Source of the DNA: a virus
Strand: one strand, 5' to 3'
Length of the DNA stretch: 49,980 bases
Virus record (IMG/VR): IMGVR_UViG_3300015195_000003
Location: 1-49,980 of that record
Numbering within the stretch: the stretch's first letter is position 1; each line of letters opens with the position of its first letter. The notes below the pieces were generated by a model. That model did no database searches, was not told where the DNA came from, and saw only the letters and a program-made list of their open reading frames with translations. Below are positions 915-44,368 of the stretch, in pieces. The position numbers were made by a program, and so were the translations under genes.

Positions 915-1497
915 CTTTTTTCGATTCGCTTTCAATCTCAGTCTTTCGACGTGTGTAGTGTTGAATTAACGACTTTCGAAACTTCGGTCCAAGTTGTTTT
1001 TGAAGCGTTTGAGATATTTTCGCAAGATCTGGAAGCGTTTTAACAGCGTCAATTTTGTCGATGGCTATTTGATCTATCTCGTCGATTTCTTCGGTCTTTG
1101 AGGCGTCTACAGCGTCATTTTCGGCTATCTCAAAAGCAATCATATACAAATATCTCTCAAGATAAGTAATTTGCGCTCCGAGATTTTGAACAGGTTGCGC
1201 GCCAGGAACTTTTGCCTCTGCAATTGGAATATAAAAAGTAATAACATCTTGGGGATTGTCAGTATTGAAGACGCGAAGCAGTGCGCGTTTGTCTTGAAGA
1301 GTAAACAGTGGCATTACTCCTTCTTGCTCTGAGAATTTTGTAACTGAAGGAAGAAAATCTCCAAGCTCGAAATAGTCTCGTCCTTGATTTTTTCCGGTCT
1401 TTTTAAGACTTGATCCAGCCAAATGATTTCGAACTTTTTGAATTCTTTTATAAATGTTGTCGATTTGCACCTTGGCCTCGTTTTTTGTTTCACTCAT
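901..1497 (-). CDS. ERF-family single-strand annealing protein
   Basis: GAQITYLERYLYMIAFEI resembles the ERF G-x-x-x-TY-x-RRY core. Size is about 200 aa, and it is immediately followed by the YqaJ exonuclease. Confidence 0.7.
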   Translation of the reverse strand: MSETKNEAKVQIDNIYKRIQKVRNHLAGSSLKKTGKNQGRDYFELGDFLPSVTKFSEQEGVMPLFTLQDKRALLRVFNTDNPQDVITFYIPIAEAKVPGAQPVQNLGAQITYLERYLYMIAFEIAENDAVDASKTEEIDEIDQIAIDKIDAVKTLPDLAKISQTLQKQLGPKFRKSLIQHYTRRKTEIESESKKDETA

Positions 1498-1504
1498 AAC
1501 GATA

Positions 1505-1533
1505 ATTATACATACTTAGACATAGCTTGTCAA
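1505..1533 (-). promoter_or_regulatory. GTCTAA-box promoter: TTGACA-agctat-GTCTAA-gtatg-TATAAT
   Basis: Reverse complement of 1505-1533. Perfect -35 and -10 hexamers with a 17-nt spacer. The ERF ATG (1497) begins 7 nt after the -10. Confidence 0.65.
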
Positions 1534-1542
1534 GGCTGGTCT

Positions 1543-1805
1543 TTAGATTTTTTCAAGCATTTTTTTATTGGCTTCTTCTGCTTGCCGGCGTCTATTTTCA
1601 GCGACAGGATCGAGTTGTCTTGTCTCCCGGACTTTTTGATCCGCTTGTCTTTCTCGAACTTCTTTTTGTTGTTGAAGACGATCGATTAAATACATCATAT
1701 CCCCATTTGATAGTCGATTGAAACAGGTTTTTTTAAAGTGGTTTTTTGCGTTTTCCTTTAAGTCGATGGCTTTATGGCCAAGCTCTTGTCCTAAAGCGAA
1801 AAACA
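1543..1805 (-). CDS. Hypothetical protein (short form of track ORF 1543..2046)
   Basis: The internal ATG at 1805 (MFFALGQELGHK...) lies just downstream of the stop of gene 1847..2146. The longer form would overlap that gene by 200 nt. Confidence 0.45.
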
Positions 1806-1846
1806 TTCTTTGTTGCGCTGGTGAGTGTTCAGCGATTGGCGCGTGG

Positions 1847-2146
1847 TTATGCGATTGAATCTTCGGGAGGTTGAGGGAAGGGTCTTGCGCCGCGTTTCCC
1901 TGGTTCGTAGGGTTTTTGCTCGGTGACGGTGTAAGTTCCTTCTTTCCACTTGAGAATGTCTGCTCCGAGGACTTTGTAATATTTTCCTTTTCCTCGACAG
2001 ACGTTTCTAGCTCTAAGTTTTCCTGCTTCGATGAGTCGTAATACATAACGATAGTCCGGCTTACCCTTCGTGTTAAGGATAAACTCGTATTTTACAATTT
2101 CCGACGGTATATACTCTCTTGTCGGATCTAAAGGTACTTTTGGCAT
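1847..2146 (-). CDS. Small DNA-binding protein, excisionase/MerR-like HTH
   Basis: YRYVLRLIEAGKLRARNV...YKVLGADILKW resembles HTH_17/Xis-type domains. Starts with ATG. Confidence 0.45.
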   Translation of the reverse strand: MPKVPLDPTREYIPSEIVKYEFILNTKGKPDYRYVLRLIEAGKLRARNVCRGKGKYYKVLGADILKWKEGTYTVTEQKPYEPGKRGARPFPQPPEDSIA

Positions 2147-2156
2147 AATTGGTTAA

Positions 2157-2196
2157 ATGATACAGGTTTCTCAAACTTTTTTCAACATGGTTAGAC
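2157..2196 (-). promoter_or_regulatory. Candidate promoter TTGAAA-N17-TATCAT with an upstream GTCTAA box
   Basis: -35 at 2180-2185, -10 at 2157-2162, ATG (2146) 10 nt downstream, and GTCTAA at 2191-2196. The geometry differs from the other GTCTAA promoters. Confidence 0.35.
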
Positions 2197-4252: not shown

Positions 4253-4450
4253 TTACTTTCCAGCTTTTGTCTTCGGTTCTTCGATAGTCTTGTTTTGCTC
4301 GACCCACAATAAAAACTCCCGAATTGCGTTATTGCCGACAAGATTTTTGTCCGACTCCTTCGGGAAGCTATTATATTTTAGTGCAAACTCTCGCAATTGT
4401 GTTATTGAGAATTTTTTCTTGTAATTTTTGATCTCTTCAAAATTGCTCAT
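4253..4450 (-). CDS. Hypothetical protein, first minus-strand gene after the divergent control region
   Basis: 65-aa ORF with an ATG start, downstream of the promoter at 4479-4507. Confidence 0.55.
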   Translation of the reverse strand: MSNFEEIKNYKKKFSITQLREFALKYNSFPKESDKNLVGNNAIREFLLWVEQNKTIEEPKTKAGK

Positions 4451-4478
4451 ACGCTTTACAGTTAAGTATATACTGTTA

Positions 4479-4507
4479 ATTATACATACTTAGACATAGT
4501 TTGTCAA
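4479..4507 (-). promoter_or_regulatory. GTCTAA-box promoter: TTGACA-aactat-GTCTAA-gtatg-TATAAT
   Basis: Perfect hexamers with a 17-nt spacer, nearly identical to the promoter at 1505-1533. Here the ATG (4450) lies 28 nt downstream. Confidence 0.6.
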
Positions 4508-4523: not shown

Positions 4524-4551
4524 TTGACATAATCCTGTGGTCTGCTATAAA
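4524..4551 (+). promoter_or_regulatory. Candidate plus-strand promoter TTGACA-N16-TATAAA
   Basis: Read directly. It is back to back with the minus-strand promoter and points toward the replication block. Confidence 0.4.
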
Positions 4552-4572
4552 TAGTAACACAAGACAAACAGC

Positions 4573-4980: not shown

Positions 4981-5777
4981 AGTATTTCCAACATGAATCA
5001 AACGCTCGAAACGACATTAAAATAAAGATGTTGCAGAAAGCGTTTGGGAACGATGGATATGCCACCTATTTTAAAATGCTGGAAATTATCTCTGAGTACG
5101 CAACGGAGCGAAATATTGACGAATGGGGTTTTGTTGATCGCTTTCACAAAACAGATACATTGGCGGACGAGTGCGGTGTTTCCCCTGATCTTTTGAAAAA
5201 AATTCTCCTGAAATGTAACGAGTTAGATCTTTTTGAGCAAAAAGAACACCGCCTTTATTGCGCTAAAATTCTAAAACGTTTGGACAATTATTCCGCAAAA
5301 GTTATCAGAAAATACAAAAAAGACGGTGGAGAAGAAAAATCAGAAAAAAATCCTGAAAAGCAAGAAATCGAAGCTAAAAACGGTGTTCGAACAAAGTCCG
5401 TACAAAGTACGGCTAGAATAGATCTAAAAGAAGAGAAGAGAGAAGAGTCACTTTTGCCAAAAGACAAAAGTTGCACTCACTCGCTTGATCCTTGTGACGA
5501 ATATTGCACTTGGGATATTGGAAACGAACTTGATACGCACAAAAACAATGTTGACGAAATAAAAGACGAGCTTATTGCCTACTTGAAGGCCGGAAACAAG
5601 AAAAAATATAAAATCTTTCATGACACGCTTATTGCCTGGGTGCGGCGAGGTTTGAAAAGCGGCGATATTTCACACATGGAGGAAATCGAGAAAATGGACA
5701 TGGAGGGCGAGCATCCCGATTACAAGAAAAAACAGCGCGAGATTGCCAAAATCCTTGTCCAGAAAGGCGTCTTGTGA
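4977..5777 (+). CDS. DUF4373/DnaD-like replication initiation protein
   Basis: N-terminal YFQHESNARNDIKIKMLQKAFGNDGYATYFKMLEII matches the Lin1244/DUF4373 N-terminal pattern. It lies upstream of the primase zinc-finger and helicase genes. Confidence 0.65.
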   Translation: MKYFQHESNARNDIKIKMLQKAFGNDGYATYFKMLEIISEYATERNIDEWGFVDRFHKTDTLADECGVSPDLLKKILLKCNELDLFEQKEHRLYCAKILKRLDNYSAKVIRKYKKDGGEEKSEKNPEKQEIEAKNGVRTKSVQSTARIDLKEEKREESLLPKDKSCTHSLDPCDEYCTWDIGNELDTHKNNVDEIKDELIAYLKAGNKKKYKIFHDTLIAWVRRGLKSGDISHMEEIEKMDMEGEHPDYKKKQREIAKILVQKGVL

Positions 5778-7351: not shown

Positions 7352-7392
7352 AACCGGCTCGCTCGTTCCCAGGAATTGACAGCCGGTTTTTT
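7352..7392 (+). terminator. Rho-independent terminator candidate ending the replication operon
   Basis: Stem aACCGGCT (7352-7359) pairs with AGCCGGTt (7381-7388), followed by a T-run. The loop is long (21 nt). Confidence 0.5.
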
Positions 7393-7410
7393 CTTGCCTA
7401 TGCTGGAGAT

Positions 7411-7689
7411 ATGGTCGTCGATGATCAATTATTTTTTATCCTCTCATCGAACCGCAAATCATTACTTGCACTTGCGAAACTTTTTGATTTAACAGAAGAC
7501 GAAGTAAATCACCCCGACGCTGGCGATTGGATGGTTGATTGCATTAAACAAATTCAAGTTACAAACATAACACTTCATACCATTAAGATGAGAGCGACAC
7601 AAAATCAGAAGATTGAAAATTATACAGCGGATCTTTTTACCAATAAAACAAATCCTTTAGTTACGACTCCCCCCTCGCAATTGAAATAG
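7411..7689 (+). CDS. Hypothetical ORF (doubtful)
   Basis: 92-aa ORF after the terminator. It overlaps the 3' end of 7661..8101 convergently. No motif recognised. Confidence 0.3.
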   Translation: MVVDDQLFFILSSNRKSLLALAKLFDLTEDEVNHPDAGDWMVDCIKQIQVTNITLHTIKMRATQNQKIENYTADLFTNKTNPLVTTPPSQLK

Positions 7690-10795: not shown

Positions 10796-10930
10796 TTATT
10801 TATATAATCCTTTGAAAAAGCCTCTCATAAACATTAGCATAATCCATTCTCCAGCACTAAAGCGCATTCCGTACATACGAAATGTACCTCGTCTTGGTTT
10901 CCAATTTTTATCGTTTGCGTATATCTTCAT
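10796..10930 (-). CDS. Small hypothetical protein (44 aa, not in the track)
   Basis: Hand translation: MKIYANDKNWKPRRGTFRMYGMRFSAGEWIMLMFMRGFFKGLYK. The ATG lies 8 nt after the -10 of promoter 10939-10967. Confidence 0.35.
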   Translation of the reverse strand: MKIYANDKNWKPRRGTFRMYGMRFSAGEWIMLMFMRGFFKGLYK

Positions 10931-10938
10931 ATACTGTA

Positions 10939-10967
10939 ATTATACATGGTTAGACATGGTTTGTCAA
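10939..10967 (-). promoter_or_regulatory. GTCTAA-box promoter: TTGACA-aaccat-GTCTAA-ccatg-TATAAT
   Basis: Perfect hexamers with a 17-nt spacer, read from the reverse complement. Confidence 0.6.
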
Positions 10968-10977
10968 CTGCGGCTTT

Positions 10978-10986
10978 TGCTACAAT
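10978..10986 (+). promoter_or_regulatory. Extended -10 promoter TGcTACAAT
   Basis: TGn plus TACAAT; the ATG at 10993 begins 6 nt downstream. No good -35 is present. Confidence 0.45.
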
Positions 10987-10992
10987 GAACTC

Positions 10993-11409
10993 ATGCACTA
11001 TTCCGATTTAGGGTACAAACACTATCAAGAATACGTCGACGGCCCTGAATGGCAAGAGATAAAAGACTACTTTTTCAAGCATTGCGGCGAGTATAAATGC
11101 CGCATTTGTGGGCGTCACTGGAAGCTACTCTTGCACAAAAGGAGCTATGAGTATTTGACGATGGAAAAGCTTCGTAATCGCTTCATTTTCAAGTTCTTCA
11201 TTGTGCGCTACCTCAAAAAATACATGACTTGGCTTTGTTTTCCCGACAATGATTTAGTGCATTTTGATGACGATGGAGGAAGAATCGAACTTGATTACAA
11301 GAAATTATGGAGAAGAGAACAACAAATCTACAGACGACGAAACGCGTGGTATAACCGACTTTTGAGAAAAAGACCATCAGAGATTATTAATCTACTTAGT
11401 GGTCGTTGA
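10993..11409 (+). CDS. Free-standing HNH-like (degenerate) protein on the opposite strand
   Basis: CRICGRHWKLLLHKRSYEYL ... LCFPDNDLVH loosely follows the CxxC...H...Y...LC...H layout of small phage HNH proteins. Its 3' end overlaps the holin 3' end by 18 nt. Confidence 0.55.
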   Translation: MHYSDLGYKHYQEYVDGPEWQEIKDYFFKHCGEYKCRICGRHWKLLLHKRSYEYLTMEKLRNRFIFKFFIVRYLKKYMTWLCFPDNDLVHFDDDGGRIELDYKKLWRREQQIYRRRNAWYNRLLRKRPSEIINLLSGR

Positions 11410-11655: not shown

Positions 11656-12845
11656 TAGTTAACACCTCCCTTTTTCTTCCAAAAATGAAGATGTGAAAAC
11701 AACCATGTGAAAAATCCAATAACAATGTCGATGTGTCGCTCTCCAGCATAGACCTTGAATTGAACACCACCCGGGCTTTGTGGGTTCTTCTTAACCTCGA
11801 TCGTCGAGGGTACTGGTACGGTATGCTCGCCTAACCCTCCCGAGGCTGGCGGTTTATTGTCGTTTTCAGGCGTGGTTGTGTCAGGGTTGTTTACTATTGG
11901 CGTTGTTGGAGCTGGCGTTGTTGTTGGCTCATCTTTTGGCGTCTGAGGCGGATTCGGTTGCGCTGGAACTTCCGGCGTCGTGGTCGTTGGCGATGTTGGG
12001 GCTGGAGTGCTAGTTTGCGTTGATGTTGCGTTTGGCTGAGCAACAGCGCCCAAATCTTCAGCAGTAGGAGCTGTCAAATGAGCATCTCGAATAGCATCCC
12101 AACAATCGGGTCTGAGGATGTGTTGGAATGACCAAAAGTTGACAGACTTGTATCCTTTTGCGGCGTTGATAAAATCAGTCAAATCTTGTGGTTTAAGAAC
12201 GTATGCTGGCTTTAGTTCGTAGTTGTCATAGGCCTGAGCTAGCGGAATGATTGGCTTACGTGACTCTTCAGGCCACTGAGCCTCCCACTTTGACCATTGC
12301 TCATACATCCAGTTAATAGCGGCCTCTGAGGTCATCTTGAAGTCACCCTGATACACCTGTGGCATCACCGCGTCGCAATATTTACCAAATACTTTGTACG
12401 GAAAGCGCGTATGAAAATCAATGATCGGCATTGGTGCGTGAGCGATAAAAGCGTTGGGATTTAATTGTCTTAAGACCTGTAGCATTTGGTCTGCCGCCGC
12501 GTTTGGGTCAGATAAGTGTTCATATTGTGTTTCCGCGTCAAAGACGTGTCCATCGCCTCCTTGGTTGATTGCCCATGATGCAATGTTCGCCTCTCGGTTG
12601 GGGTTTTGTCCATAAATGAAAGACCAAGAATAAATCTTGAGTCCTGCATCATGAAACTTTTTCACAAGATCCGCATTCCATTGATCCCAGGTGTTTTCTC
12701 CGTCCCCTGCTTTTACAACAGCATACGAAATATCATACGCTTTCATTTTTGAAATAATGGCGTTGACGTCGCCGCCGAGAATTGAAGGAAGTTCCCAAAT
12801 CCACATGCCTTTGCCAAATGGGAAGTTTTTATGGAATTTGCTCAT
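11655..12845 (-). CDS. Endolysin candidate: glycoside-hydrolase-like N-terminal domain, Pro/Thr-rich linker, C-terminal hydrophobic anchor
   Basis: KGMWIWE...VVKAGDG...DAETQYE resembles TIM-barrel glycosidase-like domains. A PT linker follows (TSTPAPTSPTTTTPEVPAQPNPPQTPKDEPTTTPAPTTP), and the C-terminus IVIGFFTWLFSHLHFW is hydrophobic. It lies between two TM-protein genes. Confidence 0.6.
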   Translation of the reverse strand: MSKFHKNFPFGKGMWIWELPSILGGDVNAIISKMKAYDISYAVVKAGDGENTWDQWNADLVKKFHDAGLKIYSWSFIYGQNPNREANIASWAINQGGDGHVFDAETQYEHLSDPNAAADQMLQVLRQLNPNAFIAHAPMPIIDFHTRFPYKVFGKYCDAVMPQVYQGDFKMTSEAAINWMYEQWSKWEAQWPEESRKPIIPLAQAYDNYELKPAYVLKPQDLTDFINAAKGYKSVNFWSFQHILRPDCWDAIRDAHLTAPTAEDLGAVAQPNATSTQTSTPAPTSPTTTTPEVPAQPNPPQTPKDEPTTTPAPTTPIVNNPDTTTPENDNKPPASGGLGEHTVPVPSTIEVKKNPQSPGGVQFKVYAGERHIDIVIGFFTWLFSHLHFWKKKGGVN

Positions 12846-12851
12846 GTATCC

Positions 12852-12881
12852 ATTATTCTACAGACTTGATCAGTTTGTCAA
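12852..12881 (-). promoter_or_regulatory. Promoter TTGACA-N18-AATAAT
   Basis: Read from the reverse complement. The endolysin ATG (12845) begins 6 nt after the -10. Confidence 0.45.
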
Positions 12882-15251: not shown

Positions 15252-15295
15252 AGGTTTAGGTTAATTTAATCGTACCACAACAATTGATAAATAAG

Positions 15296-27256: not shown

Positions 27257-27268
27257 ATTTTTATTATA

Positions 27269-27727: not shown

Positions 27728-27740
27728 AGGTTATGTATTC

Positions 27741-27770
27741 AGTTTATCTTGATTCTAAACAGCTTGTCAA
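27741..27770 (-). promoter_or_regulatory. Promoter TTGACA-N18-TAAACT
   Basis: Read from the reverse complement. The ATG (27727) lies 13 nt after the -10. Confidence 0.4.
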
Positions 27771-28148: not shown

Positions 28149-28664
28149 TTAAACCTCTGGAGCCCTATTAGCGTCTTGTGCGCTTGGCAATGCTTCTTTG
28201 TTTGCAGTTGCGGCAGTTGCGGCGGCTTCTTTTGCCTTTATTTCCTCTTCGGTTAATTCTTTGCCGAATTCATCGTAAACTTTCGCGCGCGTTGTTGGCT
28301 CAGGTGTTGTGTCTTTTGGAAGCGTTACATCTTTGCCAGTTACAGGAGTGTTGTCTTTTGCTACTTTTTCGCCTTTATCGTTGACTGCTTCGCCCTTCTC
28401 TTCGAGTGCTTTCTTCTGCTCTGCTGTCAAAGCGGCTTCTGCAACATAGCCACCGTTTTTATTAACGTCGAATTTTTCAGTATGAGGAGCCTGTGGTGCG
28501 CTGGTGAATGAAACACCTTCGATTGAATCGTCAGAAAGCTTTGCTTCTTTAGCGGCAATCAAATCTTGCGCTGTTTTGTCGTCAATGTCGTGATAGGTCT
28601 GAAAAGGAATCAAATAAAATTCGTTGTATTTGATCTTTGAATTTTCGAGTATTGTGATCTTCAT
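28149..28664 (-). CDS. Structural-module protein with a charged Lys/Glu/Ala-rich C-terminal half
   Basis: 171-aa ORF. The ATG lies 18 nt after a GTCTAA box. Confidence 0.6.
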   Translation of the reverse strand: MKITILENSKIKYNEFYLIPFQTYHDIDDKTAQDLIAAKEAKLSDDSIEGVSFTSAPQAPHTEKFDVNKNGGYVAEAALTAEQKKALEEKGEAVNDKGEKVAKDNTPVTGKDVTLPKDTTPEPTTRAKVYDEFGKELTEEEIKAKEAAATAATANKEALPSAQDANRAPEV

Positions 28665-28671
28665 AATAATA

Positions 28672-28700
28672 ATTTAGCAGACTTAGACAGCGGTTGTCAA
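28672..28700 (-). promoter_or_regulatory. GTCTAA-box promoter: TTGACA-accgct-GTCTAA-gtctg-cTAAATT
   Basis: The -35 abuts the upstream stop (28701). GTCTAA at 28683-28688. The ATG (28664) lies 6 nt after TAAATT. Confidence 0.5.
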
Positions 28701-31306: not shown

Positions 31307-31900
31307 AGGTTTTTTGTCAGAGCTGTTGTTTTCTAGCTCTAGGAAAAGCGTAAAGGATTTATTTTCGCCTGTCAATAGGGCATTTTGCTCAGCTTCATTT
31401 CCTGCCTCGTTCATCATCAGCGGAGGCAAATCTTTCTTAAACATTGGCTTGTTTACGAGTCCTCCTCCTGTCATCACGTTGTTGAGTCGGACGTCGGTAT
31501 TTTCAGGATCTGCATATCTCGGATGGAACTCGGGAGAATAGAATTTATAAATTTTATCCTTCAGCAACTGTTTGCCCAGCGTTGTCCACTCGATATCTCC
31601 GTAACCGCCATCCTCTTCGGCTGAAATTGATTTGATCCAACCAGCGGCGGCGTCTTTGTGCGATGTGGTTCCGTGTTCGACGTCGATTGGAAGTCCAGCG
31701 TCTTTACCGCCAGCTCTAATTCCCTCGTTGAAGTGTTGTGCCATTTCTTCGATTGCTTGCTTGGTGATGTTTACTTCGCCGTATGATCGGGTTTTGTATT
31801 TCCCGACTGGCACGAGTTTTATTTTGCTTGGTGGTTCCCCATTGTCGCCTTCGGCAAAAGCCATTACGTCGATGAGTGGTCGAATTCCTGAAATTTTCAT
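30692..31900 (-). CDS. Mu gpI-like prohead protease with a C-terminal scaffold region
   Basis: KLVPVGKYKTRSYGEVNITKQAIEEM...LPIDVEHG...AAGWIKS matches the Mu-like prophage protein I pattern. The C-terminal half is charged and coiled-coil-like. Confidence 0.75.
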   Translation of the reverse strand: MKISGIRPLIDVMAFAEGDNGEPPSKIKLVPVGKYKTRSYGEVNITKQAIEEMAQHFNEGIRAGGKDAGLPIDVEHGTTSHKDAAAGWIKSISAEEDGGYGDIEWTTLGKQLLKDKIYKFYSPEFHPRYADPENTDVRLNNVMTGGGLVNKPMFKKDLPPLMMNEAGNEAEQNALLTGENKSFTLFLELENNSSDKKPMELKTILAKEKTTRTSDEQAFVVAHKEELTFAEAKTEGFAEDKKAEVKETPVVKAAEGQVIMAAEEVEALKKQAGQGVLAHEKLRKAELKEEVKELVFSDKGSKLPVDQIDTAVDLLMTMTEENAAKYKAQLKALPEKEIFTEKGGTREVSGSQAGNDLDTKAKELMEKVKGMTYSEAIGRAAVENPQLYAEYNKNLPIAAVER

Positions 31901-32050
31901 AGGTCTGAGAATATCTTGCAGAGTTTTCCAGCGCTTGTCAATATCCGTTAACGGAAAAATCTAAAACGAAAAAAGGGAGTGTGCGAACAAACTTTTTCAA
32001 AAGTGAAAAAGTGACTCTTCTCTCTTCCTTCTATTTATATTCCCTCTAGA

Positions 32051-33006: not shown

Positions 33007-34602
33007 TTATTCATTTGCTCTTGTGGAAATTTCACTCTCGATTTGACTCTTCAATGACAAGATATCCTCAGCAAACGAAAACGCTTCGGTGTTAACCATG
33101 CGCTGTGGTCTCGCTTTGTCGGTTGGTTTGTCTCCTGGCATTCCTGGTGGCGGTGGTGGGAAGCCAATCTTTCGACGTTGAATATCCTTTTCGTCTTGAT
33201 CCGCAAGCTCCATCGGCGCTGGAAGATCCATTGTTTGTCTGACGTATTTATCAAGCTCCTCGTCTGGGACAATGACGCCTGTTGAAACTAACCATTGCAT
33301 TGCTTGTGCCAATTGAGCAAAGTCGACTTGACCAATACCACCCACCTCAAGCGTTGGGTATTCTGATTCTTGTGTGCCAGTGAAATTCAAATCAATTAAC
33401 TCTCGAATAGCCAGGTTAAGTTGCTCTTGAATAAGCTTGGCCATGTATTTCAGACTGACTAAAAACAACTCTGATTGATCGTCTGATAAATTCTTTGTCC
33501 CAGCACTTGAAGCTCCCATATCCAAAAAGTGCGCTAAGAACGCTTTGAGTATTTGGCGGTCGTGGTGAAGCACCATATCTTTGACGTTTTTCAGCTCCTT
33601 TGCTTTGGTGTCGATGTATTCAACTGAAAAGCCAATAGGTAAATCAATGTAGGACTGCTCATTAACACGCATGTTTTTGGCAATAACTTTCGCTCGGGCT
33701 TTGTCTTTTGGATTAGCTTGTGGCGGAACCTTGATAATTGGCACTCCCATTCCTTGACGTTCTGACGCTATGGCGTCAATCTTGTATAACGTGTCTTTAT
33801 AAAACCACGGCTTGTAGGCGGCTCTTAACAGCGAAATGCCCTCATAATTGGCTCCTTCCATTTCATTGACAAACATCATTAATTTCCACTGAGGAATTTG
33901 TACATTGCCCCCGGTCGGTAGGACTTGGGTAATACCAGGCGTAACACCATCTTCAAGCGTATATCTCCAAACCGTTTGCGGTAAACGAGGTGCAAACTTC
34001 TTCCACCCGATTTTGCCATCGACTCTTTGCCTCCAGACTTTCTCGAAAATCGAATTCCCATAATCACAGAATAACAGAATCTGGTTGAGCGTTTGCGTCC
34101 ATGAAAAGTTCGGGTTATTAAATAACTCCTCTTGAATGAATGTTTTCTTTTCAGGATTGTCCATCTTCTCTTCACTCTTTCCAGGCTTCACGTACCACGA
34201 CGCGGCGAGTAATGGTTTCTTAACGGCTTGCAAACCCAAACGGACGGTGGCATCTCCCTTTCGCATTTGATCGTAAATTCGAACACGCTCTCGACCGGCT
34301 AAATCAGGGTTGTAATCAGCCTCGGATAAAATACCGCCAATGATAATTGTTCCCGATCCTCCAAGTTCGAGTTCAAGAACTGAGGTTGGTTCAGAATCTC
34401 CAGCATCGTTTGCGTCACCACTTGCGATTTGTCGAGGGACACCAGCATTGAGAGGATCAGCGGCAAATGGTGCTTTGGGATCGTCACTCACCTGAGACTG
34501 CATTGGATCAGAAACGTCGGGCTTAACCTCGGTTGTGGGCGTTGGCCATGTCCCTGGAGCATTTGCATTATTTGAGGTTTGTTTAGGTGCTGTTTTATCC
34601 AT
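33007..34602 (-). CDS. Portal protein (Mu gp29/DUF935-like)
   Basis: 531 aa. RIYDQMRKGDATVRLGLQAVKKPLLAASWYVKPG fits the DUF935 pattern. Located between TerL and the MuF-like gene. Confidence 0.8.
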   Translation of the reverse strand: MDKTAPKQTSNNANAPGTWPTPTTEVKPDVSDPMQSQVSDDPKAPFAADPLNAGVPRQIASGDANDAGDSEPTSVLELELGGSGTIIIGGILSEADYNPDLAGRERVRIYDQMRKGDATVRLGLQAVKKPLLAASWYVKPGKSEEKMDNPEKKTFIQEELFNNPNFSWTQTLNQILLFCDYGNSIFEKVWRQRVDGKIGWKKFAPRLPQTVWRYTLEDGVTPGITQVLPTGGNVQIPQWKLMMFVNEMEGANYEGISLLRAAYKPWFYKDTLYKIDAIASERQGMGVPIIKVPPQANPKDKARAKVIAKNMRVNEQSYIDLPIGFSVEYIDTKAKELKNVKDMVLHHDRQILKAFLAHFLDMGASSAGTKNLSDDQSELFLVSLKYMAKLIQEQLNLAIRELIDLNFTGTQESEYPTLEVGGIGQVDFAQLAQAMQWLVSTGVIVPDEELDKYVRQTMDLPAPMELADQDEKDIQRRKIGFPPPPPGMPGDKPTDKARPQRMVNTEAFSFAEDILSLKSQIESEISTRANE

Positions 34603-34614
34603 AGGTCTGTTTAA

Positions 34615-34643
34615 ATACTAAAGCAAATACTTGACTTTGGCAA
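34615..34643 (-). promoter_or_regulatory. Portal promoter TTGCCA-N17-TAGTAT
   Basis: Read from the reverse complement. The ATG (34602) lies 12 nt after the -10. Its spacer overlaps the -35 of the divergent tRNA promoter. Confidence 0.45.
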
Positions 34644-36764: not shown

Positions 36765-37164
36765 TATTCAGTACAAAAAAATTATTGGTTTGCTTTTTAC
36801 TATTATCAACTATAGGAGCCTTTTGTCCATATTGTTCTGGCATTCCTCTTTCAAAGACTTTCCAAGCCAAGGGCCCAGCATCTCGATCTGCTCCATTTCT
36901 TATTATAGAGTTTATTCGATCGCCTGCCAATTCAAGCAAGTTATTTTGGGCTCTTTCCATTGCGTCCAGAAATAGAGCGTCAATTTTACACCGATCATAG
37001 AAGGCAGTTTTCGAAACTCCAGCGTAAATGCAGGCTTTACGGACACTTAATCCGTTCTGTAAACCACTCAGAAGTAAGCGGACATGTGCCTCATCAATCT
37101 TTGTAGGTCGACCCAGTGTTTTTCCCTGACTGACGGTCGGTGGATTTGGGTTTTGATTATCCAT
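36586..37164 (-). CDS. Terminase small subunit candidate (HTH, acidic C-terminal tail)
   Basis: GRPTKIDEAHVRLLLSGLQNGLSVRKACIYAGVSKTAFYDRC is a typical small-terminase HTH opening. The 3' 179 nt overlap the TerL ORF out of frame. Confidence 0.6.
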   Translation of the reverse strand: MDNQNPNPPTVSQGKTLGRPTKIDEAHVRLLLSGLQNGLSVRKACIYAGVSKTAFYDRCKIDALFLDAMERAQNNLLELAGDRINSIIRNGADRDAGPLAWKVFERGMPEQYGQKAPIVDNSKKQTNNFFVLNNEQISNIGQQPDIEAADPTELLEALEETPTVDVSAEEEGTPSIHREEISHFDPDDSDLQ

Positions 37165-37176
37165 AAATCAAGTATA

Positions 37177-37458
37177 CTAAATCGGTTGCGAAGGAATATG
37201 TTGACAGTCTTCGTCAAGAATGGTTGGTTCTCCAAACTCACTATCGGCTGAGAGGTGTTCTGTTTTATGAATACGATTTTCAACGCCTAAAACATCTGAG
37301 TCTTTAATAAGCTGACAGTTTTTACAAGCATCTCCTGTAACCGGATCAGTTGCTGGGGCTTCATGAGTCCAATGGGTTCTTGTGCAATCGAGACATTGAA
37401 CGCCGACATTATGCGCCTTGTCTGACCAGCATCGAAATCGAGGATATTTATTTTGCAT
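37177..37458 (-). CDS. Cysteine-rich small protein
   Basis: The track start (37509) is a GTG. The ATG at 37458 gives MQNKYPRFRCWSDKAHNVGVQCLDCTRTHW...CKNC. Confidence 0.5.
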   Translation of the reverse strand: MQNKYPRFRCWSDKAHNVGVQCLDCTRTHWTHEAPATDPVTGDACKNCQLIKDSDVLGVENRIHKTEHLSADSEFGEPTILDEDCQHIPSQPI

Positions 37459-37615
37459 CTTTTTTATTGTCCCTATTTCCCCACCTTTTTGCAAGTCCGT
37501 TTTTTGCACGTCGTCGCATCTCTTCTCTGAATTTTTCCTCGCCTAACTCTGCGCGAAGTTTCGCCATTGAAGACTGTCCCATCTCTTTCATTGCTTGTCT
37601 GATTACGTCACTCAT
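37448..37615 (-). CDS. Small basic protein
   Basis: The ATG at 37615 (MSDVIRQAMKEMG...) lies 7 nt after the -10 of promoter 37623-37651. Confidence 0.5.
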   Translation of the reverse strand: MSDVIRQAMKEMGQSSMAKLRAELGEEKFREEMRRRAKNGLAKRWGNRDNKKDAK

Positions 37616-37622
37616 AAAAAGT

Positions 37623-37651
37623 ATAGTAGCAAAGTGCTTGCTATATGGCAA
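37623..37651 (-). promoter_or_regulatory. Promoter TTGCCA-TATAGCAAGCACTTTGC-TACTAT (TATAGCA-type spacer)
   Basis: Read from the reverse complement, with a 17-nt spacer. It shares TATAGCA...TGC with the promoters at 38033 and 39146. Confidence 0.5.
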
Positions 37652-37802
37652 GTGGTATATGTTCGTCACAAAACCAGCTCGGCTCTTTGTTTTCTTTATA
37701 TTGAATTTTGGTCGTTGCTTGTTTCATGCAGTAGCGAGGATGAATCATATCAGGCAATCCGTCTTTGCCTGTTTGATAAATGATCTGGTCGCAGGTTTTC
37801 AT
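37644..37802 (-). CDS. Small hypothetical protein (52 aa, not in the track)
   Basis: Hand translation: MKTCDQIIYQTGKDGLPDMIHPRYCMKQATTKIQYKENKEPSWFCDEHIPLAI. ATGA overlap with the upstream stop. Confidence 0.4.
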
Positions 37803-38023
37803 AAGTGAGGTTTATAAATTGAACCATCATCCAAAACGATATTATTCAAATAGAATTTGCGTTTGGTTACAACGTCTTCGGCTTGTTGTTTTGACATCGG
37901 ACCCTCTTCCATGAAATATTCGACCAGTTCTTCATCTGACGAATTCTCATCATTTGACAAAATATCTTTGATCCAGTCTTGTGTTTGTGCGTCGAAATCG
38001 CTTAGTGTTTGTGTGTTATTCAT
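37799..38023 (-). CDS. Small acidic protein
   Basis: 74 aa rich in Asp/Glu (DFDAQTQDWIKDILSNDENSSDEELVEYFMEEG), with its own consensus promoter. Confidence 0.6.
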   Translation of the reverse strand: MNNTQTLSDFDAQTQDWIKDILSNDENSSDEELVEYFMEEGPMSKQQAEDVVTKRKFYLNNIVLDDGSIYKPHL

Positions 38024-38032
38024 ATTAAATAC

Positions 38033-38061
38033 ATTATAGCAGACTGTTTGCTATAAGTCAA
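38033..38061 (-). promoter_or_regulatory. Promoter TTGACT-TATAGCAAACAGTCTGC-TATAAT with a palindromic spacer
   Basis: Read from the reverse complement. The spacer plus -10 contain TATAGCA-N7-TGCTATA. The ATG (38023) lies 9 nt after the -10. Confidence 0.65.
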
Positions 38062-38098
38062 GGAGTAGAATAGTCCTATAAAAGCGTGATCTAAGCAA

Positions 38099-38293: not shown

Positions 38294-38302
38294 AACTATT
38301 TA

Positions 38303-38332
38303 CTCCTCTTCCCTCCCGGGCAGGGGGAGGAG
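38303..38332 (-). promoter_or_regulatory. GC-rich intergenic hairpin that includes the Shine-Dalgarno sequence of gene 38099..38293
   Basis: CTCCTC (38303-08) pairs with GAGGAG (38327-32). The inner part is CCCT/GGGG around CCCGGG. On the minus strand the 3' arm is the GAGGAG located 9 nt before the ATG. Confidence 0.5.
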
Positions 38333-39110: not shown

Positions 39111-39145
39111 GTGTATTCACCTCCTCTCGTATTGAGATTAATTAG

Positions 39146-39174
39146 ATTATAGCAAACAGTCTGCTATAAGTCAA
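39146..39174 (-). promoter_or_regulatory. Promoter TTGACT-TATAGCAGACTGTTTGC-TATAAT (the same element with its core inverted)
   Basis: Identical to the promoter at 38033-38061, except that the central 7-mer is GACTGTT instead of its reverse complement AACAGTC. Confidence 0.65.
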
Positions 39175-39201
39175 GGAGCAAACCGGTGAATTGATCAGGG
39201 G

Positions 39202-39504: not shown

Positions 39505-40557
39505 TTAGTTATATTCCCAAGAGCAAGTATTTCTATTGGTTGTGACTGTTTTATTGAGATCAGGCATTCCTGAATTCGTGCCGATAAGTGAAACGCGTCC
39601 TTGATGCGTGAGTCTCCAAGGTTTTCTAAACGATTTATTGAGGGCAGGGTGTGAAGTCGTAATCGTCAAACGAAATCCACGCTTAGTATAATACATTCCG
39701 ACAAAGTTTAACAATGCCTTTCCGATACCTATTCCTTGATAGTCAGGGAGAACCACAACTCGTGATACTTTCTTCATATTCTTGACTGCAGGATGTGGGA
39801 AATGCAAAACAGCAATAAAGCCAACCAATTTGCCAAAGAGTGTGGCGACGAAGACACGCGCGGCTGGATTGAGCGAGGCGTTCATATAGTGATAGTTTCT
39901 AAAATAGCGCCATTGAGCATTTGTTCCTTCTCTAATAACAAGCTCAATTGGCTCTCTTTTTTTTTTGACATCAATCATTTTCATATCATCAGTTGAGAAA
40001 ACCCAATCAGGATCTAAAAAGTCTAAAATATCATAGTGACAACTGACAGCGATAAATTGTTTTTGTTGTTTTCGGATATTCTTTGAAACCACCATAGAAC
40101 AAACCTTTGCCACGTCGCGGTCAACCACTGAGGTAAATTCGTCAAAGATGATTTGTTTACTTTCCGATAACAAATGATAGGCAAGATCAACGCGCATTTT
40201 TTCACCGTTTGATAAAACATGGTAGGGCTTAAGCCATGAAGGCGGTGAAGAGAATCCGACCTGCGTAAAAACTTGCGTTATTTCTTCGACAGTACGATTG
40301 ATAGGCATTTCATCAATAATAGGCTTCTGCGTGAATACAGGGCTTTGTGTGATACTGAAAATCTCTCGTGCGACTGTTGATTTACCCGTCCCACTTCGTC
40401 CCACTATTGCCCCGATGTTCCACGACTCGGGAAGATCGAGCGCGCCAGTAAATGTTTGGGTTTTGTGTTGTTCTTGGAGATCAAACATTCCGGTGATTTT
40501 GTTGACGCGAAACGATTCGACAGTCGGGGTGGTTTTTACAATGTTAAAATTATTCAT
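39505..40557 (-). CDS. Fusion of an ABC-type ATPase domain and a GNAT acyltransferase domain
   Basis: Walker A GRSGTGKST, signature-like LSNGEKMR, Walker B IIFDEF and an H-loop-like SCH. The C-terminal GNAT motif A is VVVLPDYQGIGIGKALL. Confidence 0.75.
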   Translation of the reverse strand: MNNFNIVKTTPTVESFRVNKITGMFDLQEQHKTQTFTGALDLPESWNIGAIVGRSGTGKSTVAREIFSITQSPVFTQKPIIDEMPINRTVEEITQVFTQVGFSSPPSWLKPYHVLSNGEKMRVDLAYHLLSESKQIIFDEFTSVVDRDVAKVCSMVVSKNIRKQQKQFIAVSCHYDILDFLDPDWVFSTDDMKMIDVKKKREPIELVIREGTNAQWRYFRNYHYMNASLNPAARVFVATLFGKLVGFIAVLHFPHPAVKNMKKVSRVVVLPDYQGIGIGKALLNFVGMYYTKRGFRLTITTSHPALNKSFRKPWRLTHQGRVSLIGTNSGMPDLNKTVTTNRNTCSWEYN

Positions 40558-40564
40558 GGTTTAT

Positions 40565-40581
40565 AATGTTATAATAACATT
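40565..40581. promoter_or_regulatory. 17-bp perfect palindrome AATGTTAT-a-ATAACATT in a 26-bp divergent intergenic region
   Basis: Read directly. It overlaps both TATAAT copies (40562-67 and 40570-75) between the ATGs at 40557 (minus) and 40584 (plus). Confidence 0.55.
40567..40575 (+). promoter_or_regulatory. Extended -10 promoter TGtTATAAT
   Basis: The HNH ATG (40584) begins 8 nt downstream. No clear -35 is present. Confidence 0.45.
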
Positions 40582-40583
40582 GT

Positions 40584-41000
40584 ATGCCGTTCAAAGACAA
40601 TGTGGAAAAAGCAAAGTATATGCGAAAATATCGCCTCGACAGACGCGCTCGAGGTTTATGCGTTATTTGTGGAGAAAAACGTATATCGGAATGGTTTTGT
40701 GTCAAACATCTCGCAAAGGGAAACGAAAAAAGTAAGCAGCAAAATATAGACTCTCGTCTTGAGTGTATCAATCATTATGGAGCTTTTTGCGTTTGTTGCG
40801 GAGAAAAAGAGGATAAGTTTTTAAGTATTGATCATGTAAATAACGATGGCTTTATTCATCGAAAAACTACCAAAAACTTTAGAAATATTTATTTGTGGCT
40901 AAAAAAGAATAATTATCCAAATATCGTTCAGGTGCTTTGTTTCAATTGCAATCTAGGAAAAAGAGTTAACGGTGGAATTTGCCCTCATCTTAAAGCGTGA
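40584..41000 (+). CDS. HNH endonuclease (free-standing, homing-endonuclease-like placement)
   Basis: CVCCGEKEDKFLSIDHVNNDG...LCFNCNLGK contains the HNH core with flanking Cys pairs. It is on the opposite strand from its neighbours, and its 3' end overlaps the ParB-like gene by 11 nt. Confidence 0.8.
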   Translation: MPFKDNVEKAKYMRKYRLDRRARGLCVICGEKRISEWFCVKHLAKGNEKSKQQNIDSRLECINHYGAFCVCCGEKEDKFLSIDHVNNDGFIHRKTTKNFRNIYLWLKKNNYPNIVQVLCFNCNLGKRVNGGICPHLKA

Positions 41001-41710: not shown

Positions 41711-41739
41711 ATTATGCCGAGTTAGACGGGATTTGTCAA
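41711..41739 (-). promoter_or_regulatory. GTCTAA-box promoter: TTGACA-aatccc-GTCTAA-ctcgg-CATAAT
   Basis: Read from the reverse complement. The ParB-like ATG (41703) lies 7 nt after the -10. Confidence 0.6.
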
Positions 41740-41961: not shown

Positions 41962-41980
41962 GAACTTAGTTCGCACCTCT

Positions 41981-42784
41981 TCAAAGTCGTCCAGAGTCTC
42001 CTTTTGCATACGCGAAATGGTTCGTTAATATTTCATAACCGTCCGGCAAAACACGAATCATGTGTTCAAACATCGCAGAGTTTGCCCCGTCGGCCGTTTT
42101 CAACTCCCACCCATCATCGTCAATTTTTCCCCATTTATCCCGTCCGTTGGTCAAGCAAGGTTCAAGACAAAGAATCTTTCCAGCAACCAGCTTTTCCTCC
42201 ATGTATTTTTCATATTGGTCAAACTGTTTAGGATCTTGAAAATAAGGATTAGGAACTTGATAAAACGCGTTCTCGTGCATTTCTTTACCGATATAGTGAC
42301 CACATAATTGATGATTAATCAAAAGTTTTCGTTCATTTGCGACGCGTTGCATCGCGGCGGCTACTTCCCCGATCATGACTCCTTCTTTGACTTTGGCAAT
42401 GCCAGCATAAAGCACTTTTTTCGCATAACGCAAAAGTATTTCGTCTTTTTCGGAGAGTTTGCCAACACCAAGTGAGAAAGCGGCGTCGCCACAATTCCCC
42501 TCACTATCACGAATACCAATATCGAGATTAACAAGATCGCCTTCCTCAAGAAAAATGCTTTCACTCGGGATGCCGTGAGCTATCACGTTGTTAACGGAAA
42601 TACATGCGACGGCTGGAAAGGCTGTTCGCGCCCAATTTGGTTTGTAGCCTTGATTGTAGGATGTTCCCCCTAACTTTTTCAGCTCAGACGCTCCAACTGC
42701 GTTAATCGTAAAAGTATCAATGCCTGGGCGAACATGCTCTTTCATTTTAAGAAGAACTTTTGAGACTATTTCATGGGCTTTCAT
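41981..42784 (-). CDS. map: Type I methionine aminopeptidase (peptidase M24A)
   Basis: CISVNNVIAHGIP, GDLVNLDIG, CGHYIGKEMHE, LEP and DGWELKTADGANSAMFEHMI line up with the metal-ligand blocks of E. coli Map (CISINEVVCHGIP, GDIVNIDV, CGHGIGRGFHE, IEP, DGWTVKTKDRSLSAQYEHTI). Confidence 0.85.
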   Translation of the reverse strand: MKAHEIVSKVLLKMKEHVRPGIDTFTINAVGASELKKLGGTSYNQGYKPNWARTAFPAVACISVNNVIAHGIPSESIFLEEGDLVNLDIGIRDSEGNCGDAAFSLGVGKLSEKDEILLRYAKKVLYAGIAKVKEGVMIGEVAAAMQRVANERKLLINHQLCGHYIGKEMHENAFYQVPNPYFQDPKQFDQYEKYMEEKLVAGKILCLEPCLTNGRDKWGKIDDDGWELKTADGANSAMFEHMIRVLPDGYEILTNHFAYAKGDSGRL

Positions 42785-43284
42785 AGTTTGGAGTCCTCTT
42801 GCACCTCTTCGACCAGCATTTTGGGCGGCTTAACAAATGATTTATGCGGCTCAATCTTTTCCCACTCTTCAGAAAATTCACTGAGTAGAACCATTAAATC
42901 CAATAACTCTGATTTATTTTTAAGATAGAAACTACCACCTCCACGAATTCGAGAAATGGATATTTCGCGCTCGGAGTTTTTCGGTCGTTCGTCTTCGGTC
43001 TCAACAGTCACTTGAAAAATATCTTGTTCGCTTTTGTAATCGGTTCGACTAAGTGTTGATTTTTTCATGGCTTTTTTAATTCGATATTGCGCTTTTCTCT
43101 GAATATCATATTCTCTATTTTTCTCTCGATACTCCCTATTTGTTCTTGATTTTTCAGCTTTTCCTTCCGCAGTTAACAAATATCGTTTTATTTTTCTTAA
43201 TACGATTCTTCCCTTGTGTGTTTGCCGATATTTATACACTGCAAGCTCGTTTCGTTTGCGTTTTTGAAACTCTGACAGCGCCAT
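42781..43284 (-). CDS. Basic hypothetical protein
   Basis: 167-aa Lys/Arg-rich ORF with an ATG start. Confidence 0.6.
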   Translation of the reverse strand: MALSEFQKRKRNELAVYKYRQTHKGRIVLRKIKRYLLTAEGKAEKSRTNREYREKNREYDIQRKAQYRIKKAMKKSTLSRTDYKSEQDIFQVTVETEDERPKNSEREISISRIRGGGSFYLKNKSELLDLMVLLSEFSEEWEKIEPHKSFVKPPKMLVEEVQEDSKL

Positions 43285-43491
43285 AATATACTATGAGATA
43301 GACTCAACCATTTGACGGGATTTTCTCTAATCAAATAGCTGGCTAATTCTATTTTCCTGACGCCTGCGCGTCGTCACCAGTTCTTCTCTCTTGTCGTCAA
43401 ACGGAAAAAAACGACTTTTTTCAATTTTTCTCAGGCTCTAATTAGGCCATACGTCGTAGAATATTGTTTCTACGTCACGAAAAGGCTTTTT

Positions 43492-43647
43492 TTAGTTGTG
43501 ATGCAATTTTTTCAATTCGGCTAGACGTTCCGAGGTTAAGCGATTGTTTGGATTTCGCTTCAATTCAGCCTGCATTCGTTCCATTTTCTTCGCGCCGTCG
43601 TTGTTTTCTTGTGTCGGCGTTCTCTTTCGTCTTGCGTCTTTAGGCAT
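43492..43647 (-). CDS. Small basic protein (51 aa, not in the track)
   Basis: Hand translation: MPKDARRKRTPTQENNDGAKKMERMQAELKRNPNNRLTSERLAELKKLHHN. GGAGGAG lies 8 nt upstream. Confidence 0.5.
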   Translation of the reverse strand: MPKDARRKRTPTQENNDGAKKMERMQAELKRNPNNRLTSERLAELKKLHHN

Positions 43648-43888
43648 TTCCGCTTACTCCTCCTTCATTGTTTGCTGTTGCCGACCCAAAACCTCCGCCT
43701 GACGGTAATTTTGGCTCATAGACAACCATTGCCGTAAAAAGAATATTGGAAGACCCGTCAACATGCTTATCAACGATCGTTGTTCTATGTTCGACAAAAA
43801 CAACATCAGCTTGTAATGTTTCAAGAAAACTATTGATACTTTTCTCAAGTGGATCGATGAGTCGATCGCTAAAAATCTTAACTTTCAT
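43640..43888 (-). CDS. Hypothetical protein
   Basis: The ATG at 43888 (MKVKIFSDRL...) is preferred over the track start. Confidence 0.55.
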   Translation of the reverse strand: MKVKIFSDRLIDPLEKSINSFLETLQADVVFVEHRTTIVDKHVDGSSNILFTAMVVYEPKLPSGGGFGSATANNEGGVSGNA

Positions 43889-44060
43889 TTTTACAATCCT
43901 TTCCAAACTTGCCTTGCAAAGCTTCAGCAATTGAATCTAAATCAGCAACGACAATAACCAAACCCACGACAATAACCCAATCGATACCCCACAATTGTTT
44001 AACAACTGCTAGGATAACGAAGTTCAATAATCGTAACAATAATTTTAATTTAATAGTCAT
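43878..44060 (-). CDS. Small membrane protein
   Basis: The ATG at 44060 is preceded by CAGGAGGAAAACCA. Hydrophobic stretch LLRLLNFVILAVV...WVIVVGLVIVVA. An alternative start lies at 44099. Confidence 0.55.
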   Translation of the reverse strand: MTIKLKLLLRLLNFVILAVVKQLWGIDWVIVVGLVIVVADLDSIAEALQGKFGKDCKNES

Positions 44061-44098
44061 TGGTTTTCCTCCTGTAATAACGCAATATAGATTTTCCA

Positions 44099-44368
44099 TT
44101 ATTTGTCTCCTTTCGCGAGCTTTTCGTATTTCTCAATCAGTCGATTCAAATTTTCTACATGCCCTTCCTCTTTTTTGATTTCCTGCTTTTTTAATTCGAT
44201 CGAAGCGTTTTCTCCTTCAACCAACTTAATTCTGTCAGCGTTTTTAGGATAGCTTTTGATAGCGGTCAAGCGAGCCTCTATCGCCTCTTCTTTGGCGCAA
44301 ATGGTACTGACCACACTTTCTCGAAGTTCTTTAAATTTCTTAAGCTTTAACTCGATCATTGAAAACAT
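44099..44368 (-). CDS. Coiled-coil hypothetical protein
   Basis: 89-aa ORF. The ATG lies 18 nt after a GTCTAA box. Confidence 0.6.
   Translation of the reverse strand: MFSMIELKLKKFKELRESVVSTICAKEEAIEARLTAIKSYPKNADRIKLVEGENASIELKKQEIKKEEGHVENLNRLIEKYEKLAKGDK

Follow-up and report, generated by a model that had tools for sequence, protein, structure and literature searches.

Promoter elements abutting start codons predict leaderless mRNAs across an uncultured phage genome

In the viral DNA analysed here, positions 1 to 49,980 of IMG/VR record IMGVR_UViG_3300015195_000003 (the window, the whole 49,980-base stretch), the first genes of many short units, about a quarter of all genes, begin directly after a promoter-like sequence of near-consensus type, and the genes downstream of them are led by a Shine-Dalgarno (SD) sequence or coupled to the preceding gene. 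We consider it likely, at roughly 75%, that host primary-sigma promoters yield leaderless mRNAs, or mRNAs with leaders of 0–3 nt, which are translated by 5'-AUG-dependent initiation. The geometry of these units exceeds chance, recurs in related phages and belongs to correctly assigned start codons. Promoter activity, the positions of transcription starts and the mode of translation are predicted from the sequence.

Promoter elements and start codons

An earlier note on this DNA listed 15 ATG codons lying 6–9 nt after a −10 hexamer and proposed that leaderless mRNAs are widespread. When coordinates were recomputed, all 15 ATGs were found, with every quoted hexamer at exactly the distance given. 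All but 37615 are the first possible start downstream of a stop in the same frame. The open reading frame (ORF) of 37615 has an earlier GTG at 37669, but this ATG is also where the 98%-identical orthologue in the related contig L005 begins. The product of the ORF at 10930 would be just 44 amino acids (aa) long. The absence of SD sequences from these genes was borne out, as no core is present and there is no room for one, and the 6–9 nt between −10 and ATG are A/T-rich. Among the start-abutting sites of the list below, only 27256 has a GGAG, GAGG or AGGA core in its upstream region, a GAGG that precedes the −10 hexamer. At most sites there is in addition a TTGACA-like −35 element at 16–18 bp, which the note had not reported. 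Three promoters match the consensus at 12/12 positions (1505–1533, 10939–10967 and 4479–4507, the last with a leader). About eight further sites extend the original 15 (7411 on the plus strand, 23894, 26977, 27256, 37164 and 40557; 2146 at a gap of 10).

We assessed this arrangement in a set of 80–81 starts, hand-curated from the ORFs. With the 1402 other ATGs as background, TANNNT ends exactly 6 nt before the start (a gap of 6) at 14/80 genes, compared with 1.1 expected, and at gaps of 7–9 at 12 more genes, compared with 3.0 expected. A −35 and −10 with at least 10/12 matches and a gap of 5–9 precede 11/81 genes (0.12 expected); at least 9/12 matches are found at 14 (0.64 expected). Within the real upstream regions, a gap of 6 is the sole outstanding distance. 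When each gene's 20-nt upstream region was shuffled 2000 times, which retains local AT-richness, TANNNT at gap 6–7 was found 6.0 ± 2.3 times (maximum 14), compared with 19 observed.

Among the 27 units listed below, 17 have a gap of exactly 6 nt and 4 a gap of 7 nt. A −35 with at least 5/6 matches stands at 17–18 bp in 14 of the 25 leaderless or short-leader units, and those without such a −35 include four with a TGn extension of the −10 (10993, 26612, 26977 and 40584). Every gap-6 site has T or C at −1 and A at +1. RNA polymerase prefers a pyrimidine (−1)/purine (+1) pair at start sites. The earlier placement of the transcript start at or near the A of the ATG fits the modal gap, which would put this A at +1 and the −10 at −12 to −7.

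The same TANNNT metric was applied to two cultured phages. The first 40 kb of Thermus phage phiYS40, a positive control, have 15/47 genes at gap 6–9, and the units are visibly alike (TTGACA-17-TAnnnT-6/7-ATG at ~30% of genes). Microbacterium phage Min1, chosen as the best cultured-phage portal match found and used as a negative control, has 2/77 genes at gap 5–8 and an SD at 41/77. The layout had been called unusually systematic for a phage; this is so relative to Min1, but the Thermus phages phiYS40 and Lalka27a are precedents. We infer widespread leaderless or nearly leaderless mRNAs, as the note proposed, from the agreement of geometry, promoter quality, conservation and the phiYS40 comparison.

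In the mechanism we propose, the first gene of each of about 20–25 short units would have a primary-sigma promoter, consisting of a TTGACA-like −35, a 16–18 bp spacer and TANNNT, often with TGn. The last T of the −10 would sit 6–7 nt (range 5–10) before the ATG. RNA polymerase would start on the A of the ATG at gaps of 6 and 7 and 1–3 nt upstream at gaps of 8 and 9 (10930, 38023 and 40584), where 1–3-nt leaders are more likely. The resulting mRNA would lack a ribosome-binding leader and would be translated through its 5'-terminal AUG by the leaderless pathway. Later genes in each unit would be SD-led (~21) or SD-less and stop-coupled (~22). No sigma factor or RNA polymerase gene was found in Pfam scans of ~80 proteins, so the host RNA polymerase is assumed; integrase and WhiB were likewise absent from these scans.

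The promoter-start units are given below as −35, spacer length, −10, gap and ATG. Families A and B are repeated promoter motifs, and L003–L006 and L016 are relatives; both are described in later sections. Units marked new lie beyond the earlier list.

1495–1533 (−), ERF recombinase: TTGACA-17-TATAAT-7-ATG; family A spacer (TGTCTAAG)
2144–2185 (−), 99-aa ORF: weaker, TTGAAA-17-TATCAT-10-ATG; predicted leader 3–4 nt
7376–7413 (+), 92-aa ORF: TTGACA-17-TATGCT-6-ATG; new
10928–10967 (−), 44-aa ORF: 12/12 TTGACA-17-TATAAT-8-ATG; family A spacer; back to back with the 10993 unit
10978–10995 (+), 138-aa gene: extended −10 TGcTACAAT-6-ATG; no usable −35
12843–12881 (−), 396-aa weak GH25-like endolysin candidate: TTGACA-18-AATAAT-6-ATG
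19972–20010 (−), tape measure: TTGCCG-18-TATACT-6-ATG
20497–20535 (−), 20499 gene: TTGACA-18-(TGc)TAACTT-6-ATG; family A spacer; 36-nt intergenic gap
21906–21943 (−), 69-aa gene: TTGACA-17-TACTAT-6-ATG; 38-nt intergenic gap
23892–23909 (−), 320-aa gene: TAGAAT-6-ATG, weak −35; L016 orthologue TATACT-6-ATG
26610–26627 (−), 902-aa minor-tail-like gene: extended −10 TGgTAAACT-6-ATG
26975–27011 (−), 111-aa gene: TCCACA-16-(TGt)TATAAT-6-ATG; new
27254–27292 (−), 86-aa gene: TTTTCA-18-TATAAT-6-ATG; new
27725–27770 (−), short-leader class: TTGACA-18-TAAACT-13-ATG; predicted leader AUAACCU
28662–28700 (−), 171-aa head-tail gene: TTGACA-18-(TGc)TAAATT-6-ATG; family A spacer; 36-nt gap to the upstream gene; kept in L003, L004 and L006
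30257–30295 (−), major capsid: TTGACT-18-TTTAAT-6-ATG; 39-nt gap to the upstream gene; kept in L003 and L006; AATAAT at gap 6 in L004
31898–31941 (−), Mu-like protease/scaffold, short-leader class: TTGACA, poor −10 CAAGAT, 12 nt ending cAGACCT before ATG
34600–34643 (−), portal, short-leader class: TTGCCA-17-TAGTAT-12-ATG, cAGACCT before ATG; L006 orthologue gap 6 (leaderless)
37162–37179 (−), small terminase: TATACT-6-ATG; TATAAT-6-ATG in L003 and L005; an AAGGAG SD instead in L006
37613–37651 (−), 55-aa ORF: TTGCCA-17-(TGc)TACTAT-7-ATG; family B dyad cassette
38021–38061 (−), 74-aa gene with weak winged helix-turn-helix matches: TTGACT-17-(TGc)TATAAT-9-ATG; family B dyad cassette; predicted leader 2–3 nt
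40555–40594 (−), GNAT-domain gene: TTGAAC-17-TAACAT-8-ATG; divergent from 40584, 26 nt between the ATGs
40567–40586 (+), HNH endonuclease: extended −10 TGtTATAAT-8-ATG; insertion, absent from L005 and L006
41701–41739 (−), ParB-like: TTGACA-17-CATAAT-7-ATG; family A spacer; gap 7/6 in L005/L006; gap 13/11 with an ACCT mini-leader in L003/L004
44366–44404 (−), 89-aa gene: TTTACA-18-(TGc)TATATT-6-ATG; family A spacer; kept in L003 and L006
39108–39174 (−), for contrast, DUF932 gene: family B TTGACT-17-TATAAT, 35-nt gap to the ATG with a strong SD (GAGGAGGTGA)
4448–4507 (−), for contrast, ATG 4450: 12/12 family A promoter; 28 nt without an SD between −10 and ATG

Most gene names in the earlier note hold: the major capsid (30259), tape measure (19974) and ERF (1497) genes by Pfam and the ParB-like gene (41703) by PHROGs. 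The endolysin at 12845 is a weak candidate, with a GH25 match at E = 0.0065 that lies below the family cut-off. At the 4479–4507 promoter, an in-frame ATA lies downstream where the paralogous 10930 promoter has ATG. A plus-strand promoter, TTGACA-16-TATAAA (4525–4552), stands back to back with the 4448–4507 unit, ~140 nt before the replication operon.

Sorted by rule, with approximate counts, the 81 genes fall into five start classes.

Promoter-abutted, a few of them weak: ~24 genes
Short leader, promoter 11–13 nt upstream: ~3 genes
SD core of at least 4 nt, some very strong (GGAGGTGA): ~21 genes
SD-less, start at most 12 nt from or overlapping the upstream stop: ~22 genes
Other: ~11 genes

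SD-less genes close to a preceding stop are probably translated by termination-reinitiation coupling. The intergenic gaps at 20499, 28664, 21908 and 30259 (36, 36, 38 and 39 nt) are just long enough for one minimal promoter, and in each the stop codon of the preceding gene lies next to the −35. At 20499 and 28664 the two abut, and the ATG follows after 36 nt (6 + 18 + 6 + 6).

Conservation among relatives and a short-leader class

A search with the portal protein returned a family of metagenomic contigs of 44–49 kb; a search with the tape-measure protein returned two relatives only. Five relatives were compared in part, L003–L006 (portal 62–88% identical) and the more distant L016 (GC 0.375). 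In orthologues of the capsid, 28664, ParB-like and 44368 genes, both promoter hexamers and their spacing to the ATG are retained, whereas the spacer and flanks diverge. Across the five relatives, TANNNT stands at gap 6–7 in 23/125 called starts, compared with ~5.3 expected. Orthologues share their N-terminal peptides from Met1 onwards, with synonymous differences between the codons, and stops in the same frame lie a short way upstream. These data indicate that the starts are correctly assigned.

The start type is not fixed. The small terminase gene has TATA(A/C)T-6-ATG in the window, L003 and L005 and an AAGGAG SD in L006 (7475–7498). More distant capsid homologues (at most 60% identity; L031, L034, L035 and L037) are SD-led, which indicates that the layout is specific to this clade and presumably a property of its host. 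The Logan calls for the portal genes of L003 and L005 (at 10001 in each) use an in-frame ATG that lies within the promoter spacer, 24 nt upstream of the conserved portal start. Gene callers that rely on SD sequences can thus misplace starts in these phages.

The distance from −10 to ATG is bimodal, with peaks at 6–7 and 12–13 nt. The second class, with the −10 at 11–13 nt before the ATG, always has (A/G)ACCT abutting the ATG. Its arrangement predicts 6 nt from the −10 to a pyrimidine/A start, followed by a fixed 6-nt mini-leader AGACCU (or AACCU) that ends at the AUG. Sites of this class are found in the window at 27725–27770, 31898–31941, 34600–34643 and 15252–15270, and in relatives at 5470–5514 (L003), 1096–1138 (L004) and 8013 and 16620 (L016). 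No other 4-mer precedes start codons in the phage family as often as ACCT, which does so at 16/206 starts in ~9 independent genes.

Orthologues interconvert between the leaderless and short-leader states. The portal gene has a gap of 12 in the window, L003, L004 and L005 and of 6 in L006; the ParB-like gene has a gap of 7 or 6 in the window, L005 and L006 and of 13 and 11 in L003 and L004. Because ACCU has the same sense as the anti-SD, it cannot pair with it, and it could therefore be an SD-independent element.

Repeated motifs and alternative readings

Two families of repeated motifs lie in the promoters. Family A, TTGACA-N5-TGTCTAA, has 7 copies, all on the minus strand (1516–1533, 4490–4507, 10950–10967, 20518–20535, 28683–28700, 41722–41739 and 44387–44404), compared with 0.14 expected. 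Its −35 hexamer and spacer motif form an imperfect inverted repeat, which also occurs in L003, L004 and L006 and looks like a putative operator. Family B is a 49-nt promoter cassette in 3 copies (37607–37655, 38017–38065 and 39130–39178), with a core 23-bp dyad (TTATAGCAGAC-T-GTTTGCTATAA) overlapping the spacer and −10. Two copies precede small near-leaderless genes; the third stands 35 nt upstream of the DUF932 gene with a strong SD between. The 902-aa tail gene contains four phased GTCTAAA sites in an array (24380–24428), three direct at 11- and 10-nt spacing and one inverted, with the same heptamer as the family A promoters. The array was not seen in the compared parts of the relatives. Scanning IMG/VR for the family A cassette gave 11 single matches only, which we estimate to be no more than chance for a collection of this size.

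Together, family A, family B and the array point to one or more sequence-specific regulators that would act on the promoters. Repeated repressor sites are known from phage and plasmid promoters, as in the stoperators of Cluster A mycobacteriophages and the KorB operators of RK2. The likeness lies in a short motif repeated in one orientation at many sites and, here, in a ParB-like gene and a clustered array. However, the spacer motifs bear no sequence resemblance to either, the sites are putative, and this likeness is separate from that of the leaderless layout. A joint reading of these motifs with the mini-leader is speculative and on balance doubtful: AGACCU might be a second 5' architecture, with ACCU a previously undescribed SD-independent initiation or initial-transcribed element, and the GTCTAA motifs and array could mark a global regulator in the style of ParB/KorB.

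Several observations weigh against leaderless expression from host promoters. Terminator-like hairpins are not above chance in number and none lies between units, so the same ATGs are probably also internal to longer read-through transcripts. Recognition of the promoters by the holoenzyme of the host is assumed. The 22 SD-less coupled genes require SD-independent internal initiation, and lack of an SD is thus by itself no indicator of a leaderless gene. Some −10 hexamers are poor (TTTAAT, TAACTT and CAAGAT) and several sites have no −35. Predicted 5'-end folding energy is no different in the leaderless class from other genes. Finally, the gaps after the perfect or near-perfect promoters at 4479–4507 and 39146–39174 are 28 and 35 nt, so promoters here do not always abut the ATG.

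Expression could instead run essentially through long polycistronic transcripts, with the promoter-like hexamers weak, silent or auxiliary and the ATGs read internally, which we regard as unlikely. Phage structural modules are commonly single operons. The lack of above-chance terminators between units fits such transcripts, as do the 22 other genes that are SD-less within 12 nt of an upstream stop, where internal initiation is needed anyway. Yet long transcripts leave the near-consensus −35/−10 pairs at a fixed 6–7 nt unexplained (11 seen against 0.12), and they account neither for the promoter-length intergenic gaps nor for the geometry kept in relatives. Moreover, phiYS40 has the identical pattern, and most of its transcripts are reported to be leaderless.

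It is quite improbable that the repeated cassettes serve mainly as recombination linkers or as binding sites for proteins, for example as operators, stoperator-like sites or module boundaries, and resemble start-abutting promoters only secondarily. The single orientation and excess of family A (7 copies against 0.14), the three 49-nt family B cassettes with their 23-bp dyad and the array of four GTCTAAA sites at 24380–24428 would suit this explanation. But about half of the start-abutting promoters have neither motif (12845, 19974, 21908, 26612, 26977, 27256, 30259, 37164 and others), and the motifs sit in the spacer with −35 and −10 intact, as operators do in real promoters. Nor would binding sites predict the 6-nt distance to the ATG.

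We dismiss the view that chance TANNNT in AT-rich intergenic DNA and TAA stops, or mis-assigned starts, produced the pattern: TANNNT is also enriched at gap 0 (11 genes), from upstream TAA stops and T at −1, and the gene set was curated by hand, but composition-keeping shuffles give 6.0 ± 2.3 against 19, gap 6 alone stands out, −35 elements cannot come from stop codons, and N-termini are kept from Met1 below in-frame stops. Leaderless or nearly leaderless expression from host primary-sigma promoters is the reading that we carry forward.

Genome, host and known systems

The two contig ends are identical over 127 nt (1–127 and 49854–49980 of the window), which indicates a complete genome of 49,853 bp that is circular or circularly permuted. 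The gene set is siphovirus-like, the GC content is ~0.42, and nearly all genes are on the minus strand. Pfam and domain scans identified a Mu-type portal, a Mu-like protease/scaffold, an E-type major capsid, a tape measure, Dit and tail-tube proteins, together with ERF, a YqaJ-like exonuclease, a DnaB-like helicase and a primase zinc finger. Small and large terminase, a ParB-like protein and an HNH endonuclease are also encoded. No tRNA genes or Rfam families were found in the genome, and no near-DNA match exists among 50,697 cultured or deposited phage genomes. A Mycoplasma-type genetic code was ruled out, as TGA is the stop codon of 21/81 genes; the code is standard.

The HNH endonuclease gene (40584–41000, plus strand) lies opposite to and between the ParB-like and GNAT genes; it is missing from the same position in L005 and L006 and is therefore probably a mobile homing-endonuclease insertion. 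A type-I methionine aminopeptidase (41981–42784, minus strand) is kept throughout the phage family, and its cellular homologues are only ~35% identical and come from mixed phyla. In many of the predicted leaderless genes, the second residue is Pro, Ala, Gly or Ser. A GC-rich hairpin (38299–38332; CTCCTCCCCCTGCCCGGGAGGGAAGAGGAG on the minus strand) just before the 38293 gene is kept in L005. It holds the SD-like GAGGAG of that gene and is terminator-like on the plus strand.

Protein matches lean weakly to an actinobacterial host. The top portal matches are Microbacterium, Arthrobacter and Gordonia phages (31–35%), with Arthrobacter and Mycolicibacterium prophages also present, and Arthrobacter phages are among the best capsid matches. 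The 902-aa and 574-aa tail proteins match only Streptomyces phages, besides one weak match of the 902-aa protein to an uncultured phage. The GC content of 42% and the lack of WhiB and of tRNA genes are against or neutral for such a host. Equally against or neutral is a profile scan of a genome collection, in which the closest sequence was a 39.9-kb contig binned with a groundwater Parcubacteria metagenome-assembled genome (46% portal identity). It is SD-less and without TTGACA promoters, and has a weaker TANNNT excess at gap 6–7 (4/18 against 0.66 expected). A single-protein scan of GTDB genomes gave no match, and nothing relevant was found in the literature linking leaderless initiation or SD use to the candidate phyla radiation (CPR)/Patescibacteria. 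A thermophilic host (Thermus or Aquificae) is unlikely, given the mesophile-like proteome (IVYWREL = 0.361). Because the layout is confined to this clade and SD-led starts are found in more distant capsid homologues, a host from a leaderless-rich group is probable, for example one of the Actinobacteria or Deinococcota.

On the leaderless reading, an entire lineage of uncultured and apparently mesophilic phages would rely on this mode of expression. The 36-nt compact, near-consensus promoter-AUG modules are available as test material. Natural orthologue pairs that differ only in a leaderless, 6-nt-leader or SD-led start would make the needs of leaderless translation directly comparable.

One close parallel is found in the Thermus phages phiYS40 and Lalka27a, most of whose transcripts are reported to be leaderless, with the 5' end at the A or G of the initiator codon (bioRxiv 10.64898/2026.04.20.719267, citing Sevostyanova et al. 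2007). They share with the phage described here many promoters and, in the scanned 40 kb of phiYS40, start-abutting units at ~30% of genes, the same proportion as here. They differ in being thermophilic myoviruses of 150 kb or with their own regulators, whereas the proteome here is mesophile-like, and the special TAGGGT −10 of the Lalka late promoters was not seen in this phage. There was no DNA match to phiYS40 or Lalka, and neither was recorded among the best protein matches listed; the sole Thermus phage match was a weak one of the protease to Riverbug (30% identity over 37% of the query). The phage would work like phiYS40 and Lalka but by sequence is not their relative.

Cellular genomes offer a second parallel. 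In D. radiodurans, roughly a third of the genes have TANNNT ~6–7 bp before the ORF. Experiments showed that this hexamer acts as the −10 in leaderless genes and that expression rises when a −35 is placed 17 bp upstream (Zhong et al. 2025, PMC12340547). By computation, Zheng et al. (2011, PMC3160421) came to the same conclusion for Actinobacteria and Deinococcus-Thermus, with a TAtaaT-type signal in medium-GC groups. These genomes resemble the window in having TANNNT 6–7 bp before an SD-less start at ~25–30% of genes, beside a separate SD-led class. The Deinococcus examples, however, are cellular and mostly without a −35, whereas in this 42% GC phage a TTGACA-like −35 is the rule.

In Cluster O mycobacteriophages (Corndog and relatives), the promoters PL1, PR2 and PL2 are predicted to yield leaderless mRNAs (PMC4351075). 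A divergent pair, one promoter inside the structural region and a repeated palindromic motif are common to both systems. Only ~3 of the 8–9 Cluster O promoters are of this kind, in 70-kb genomes, compared with ~20–25 here, and the 17-bp palindromes are separate from promoters, whereas the repeated motifs here lie inside promoter spacers. The classic leaderless phage transcript is the lambda cI mRNA from PRM, which has the AUG at its 5' end and needs no SD for translation. There it serves one regulatory gene in an otherwise SD-led genome; here the design is genome-wide. The system is thus of a known kind and involves no new mechanism, and what is new is its occurrence across another phage lineage.

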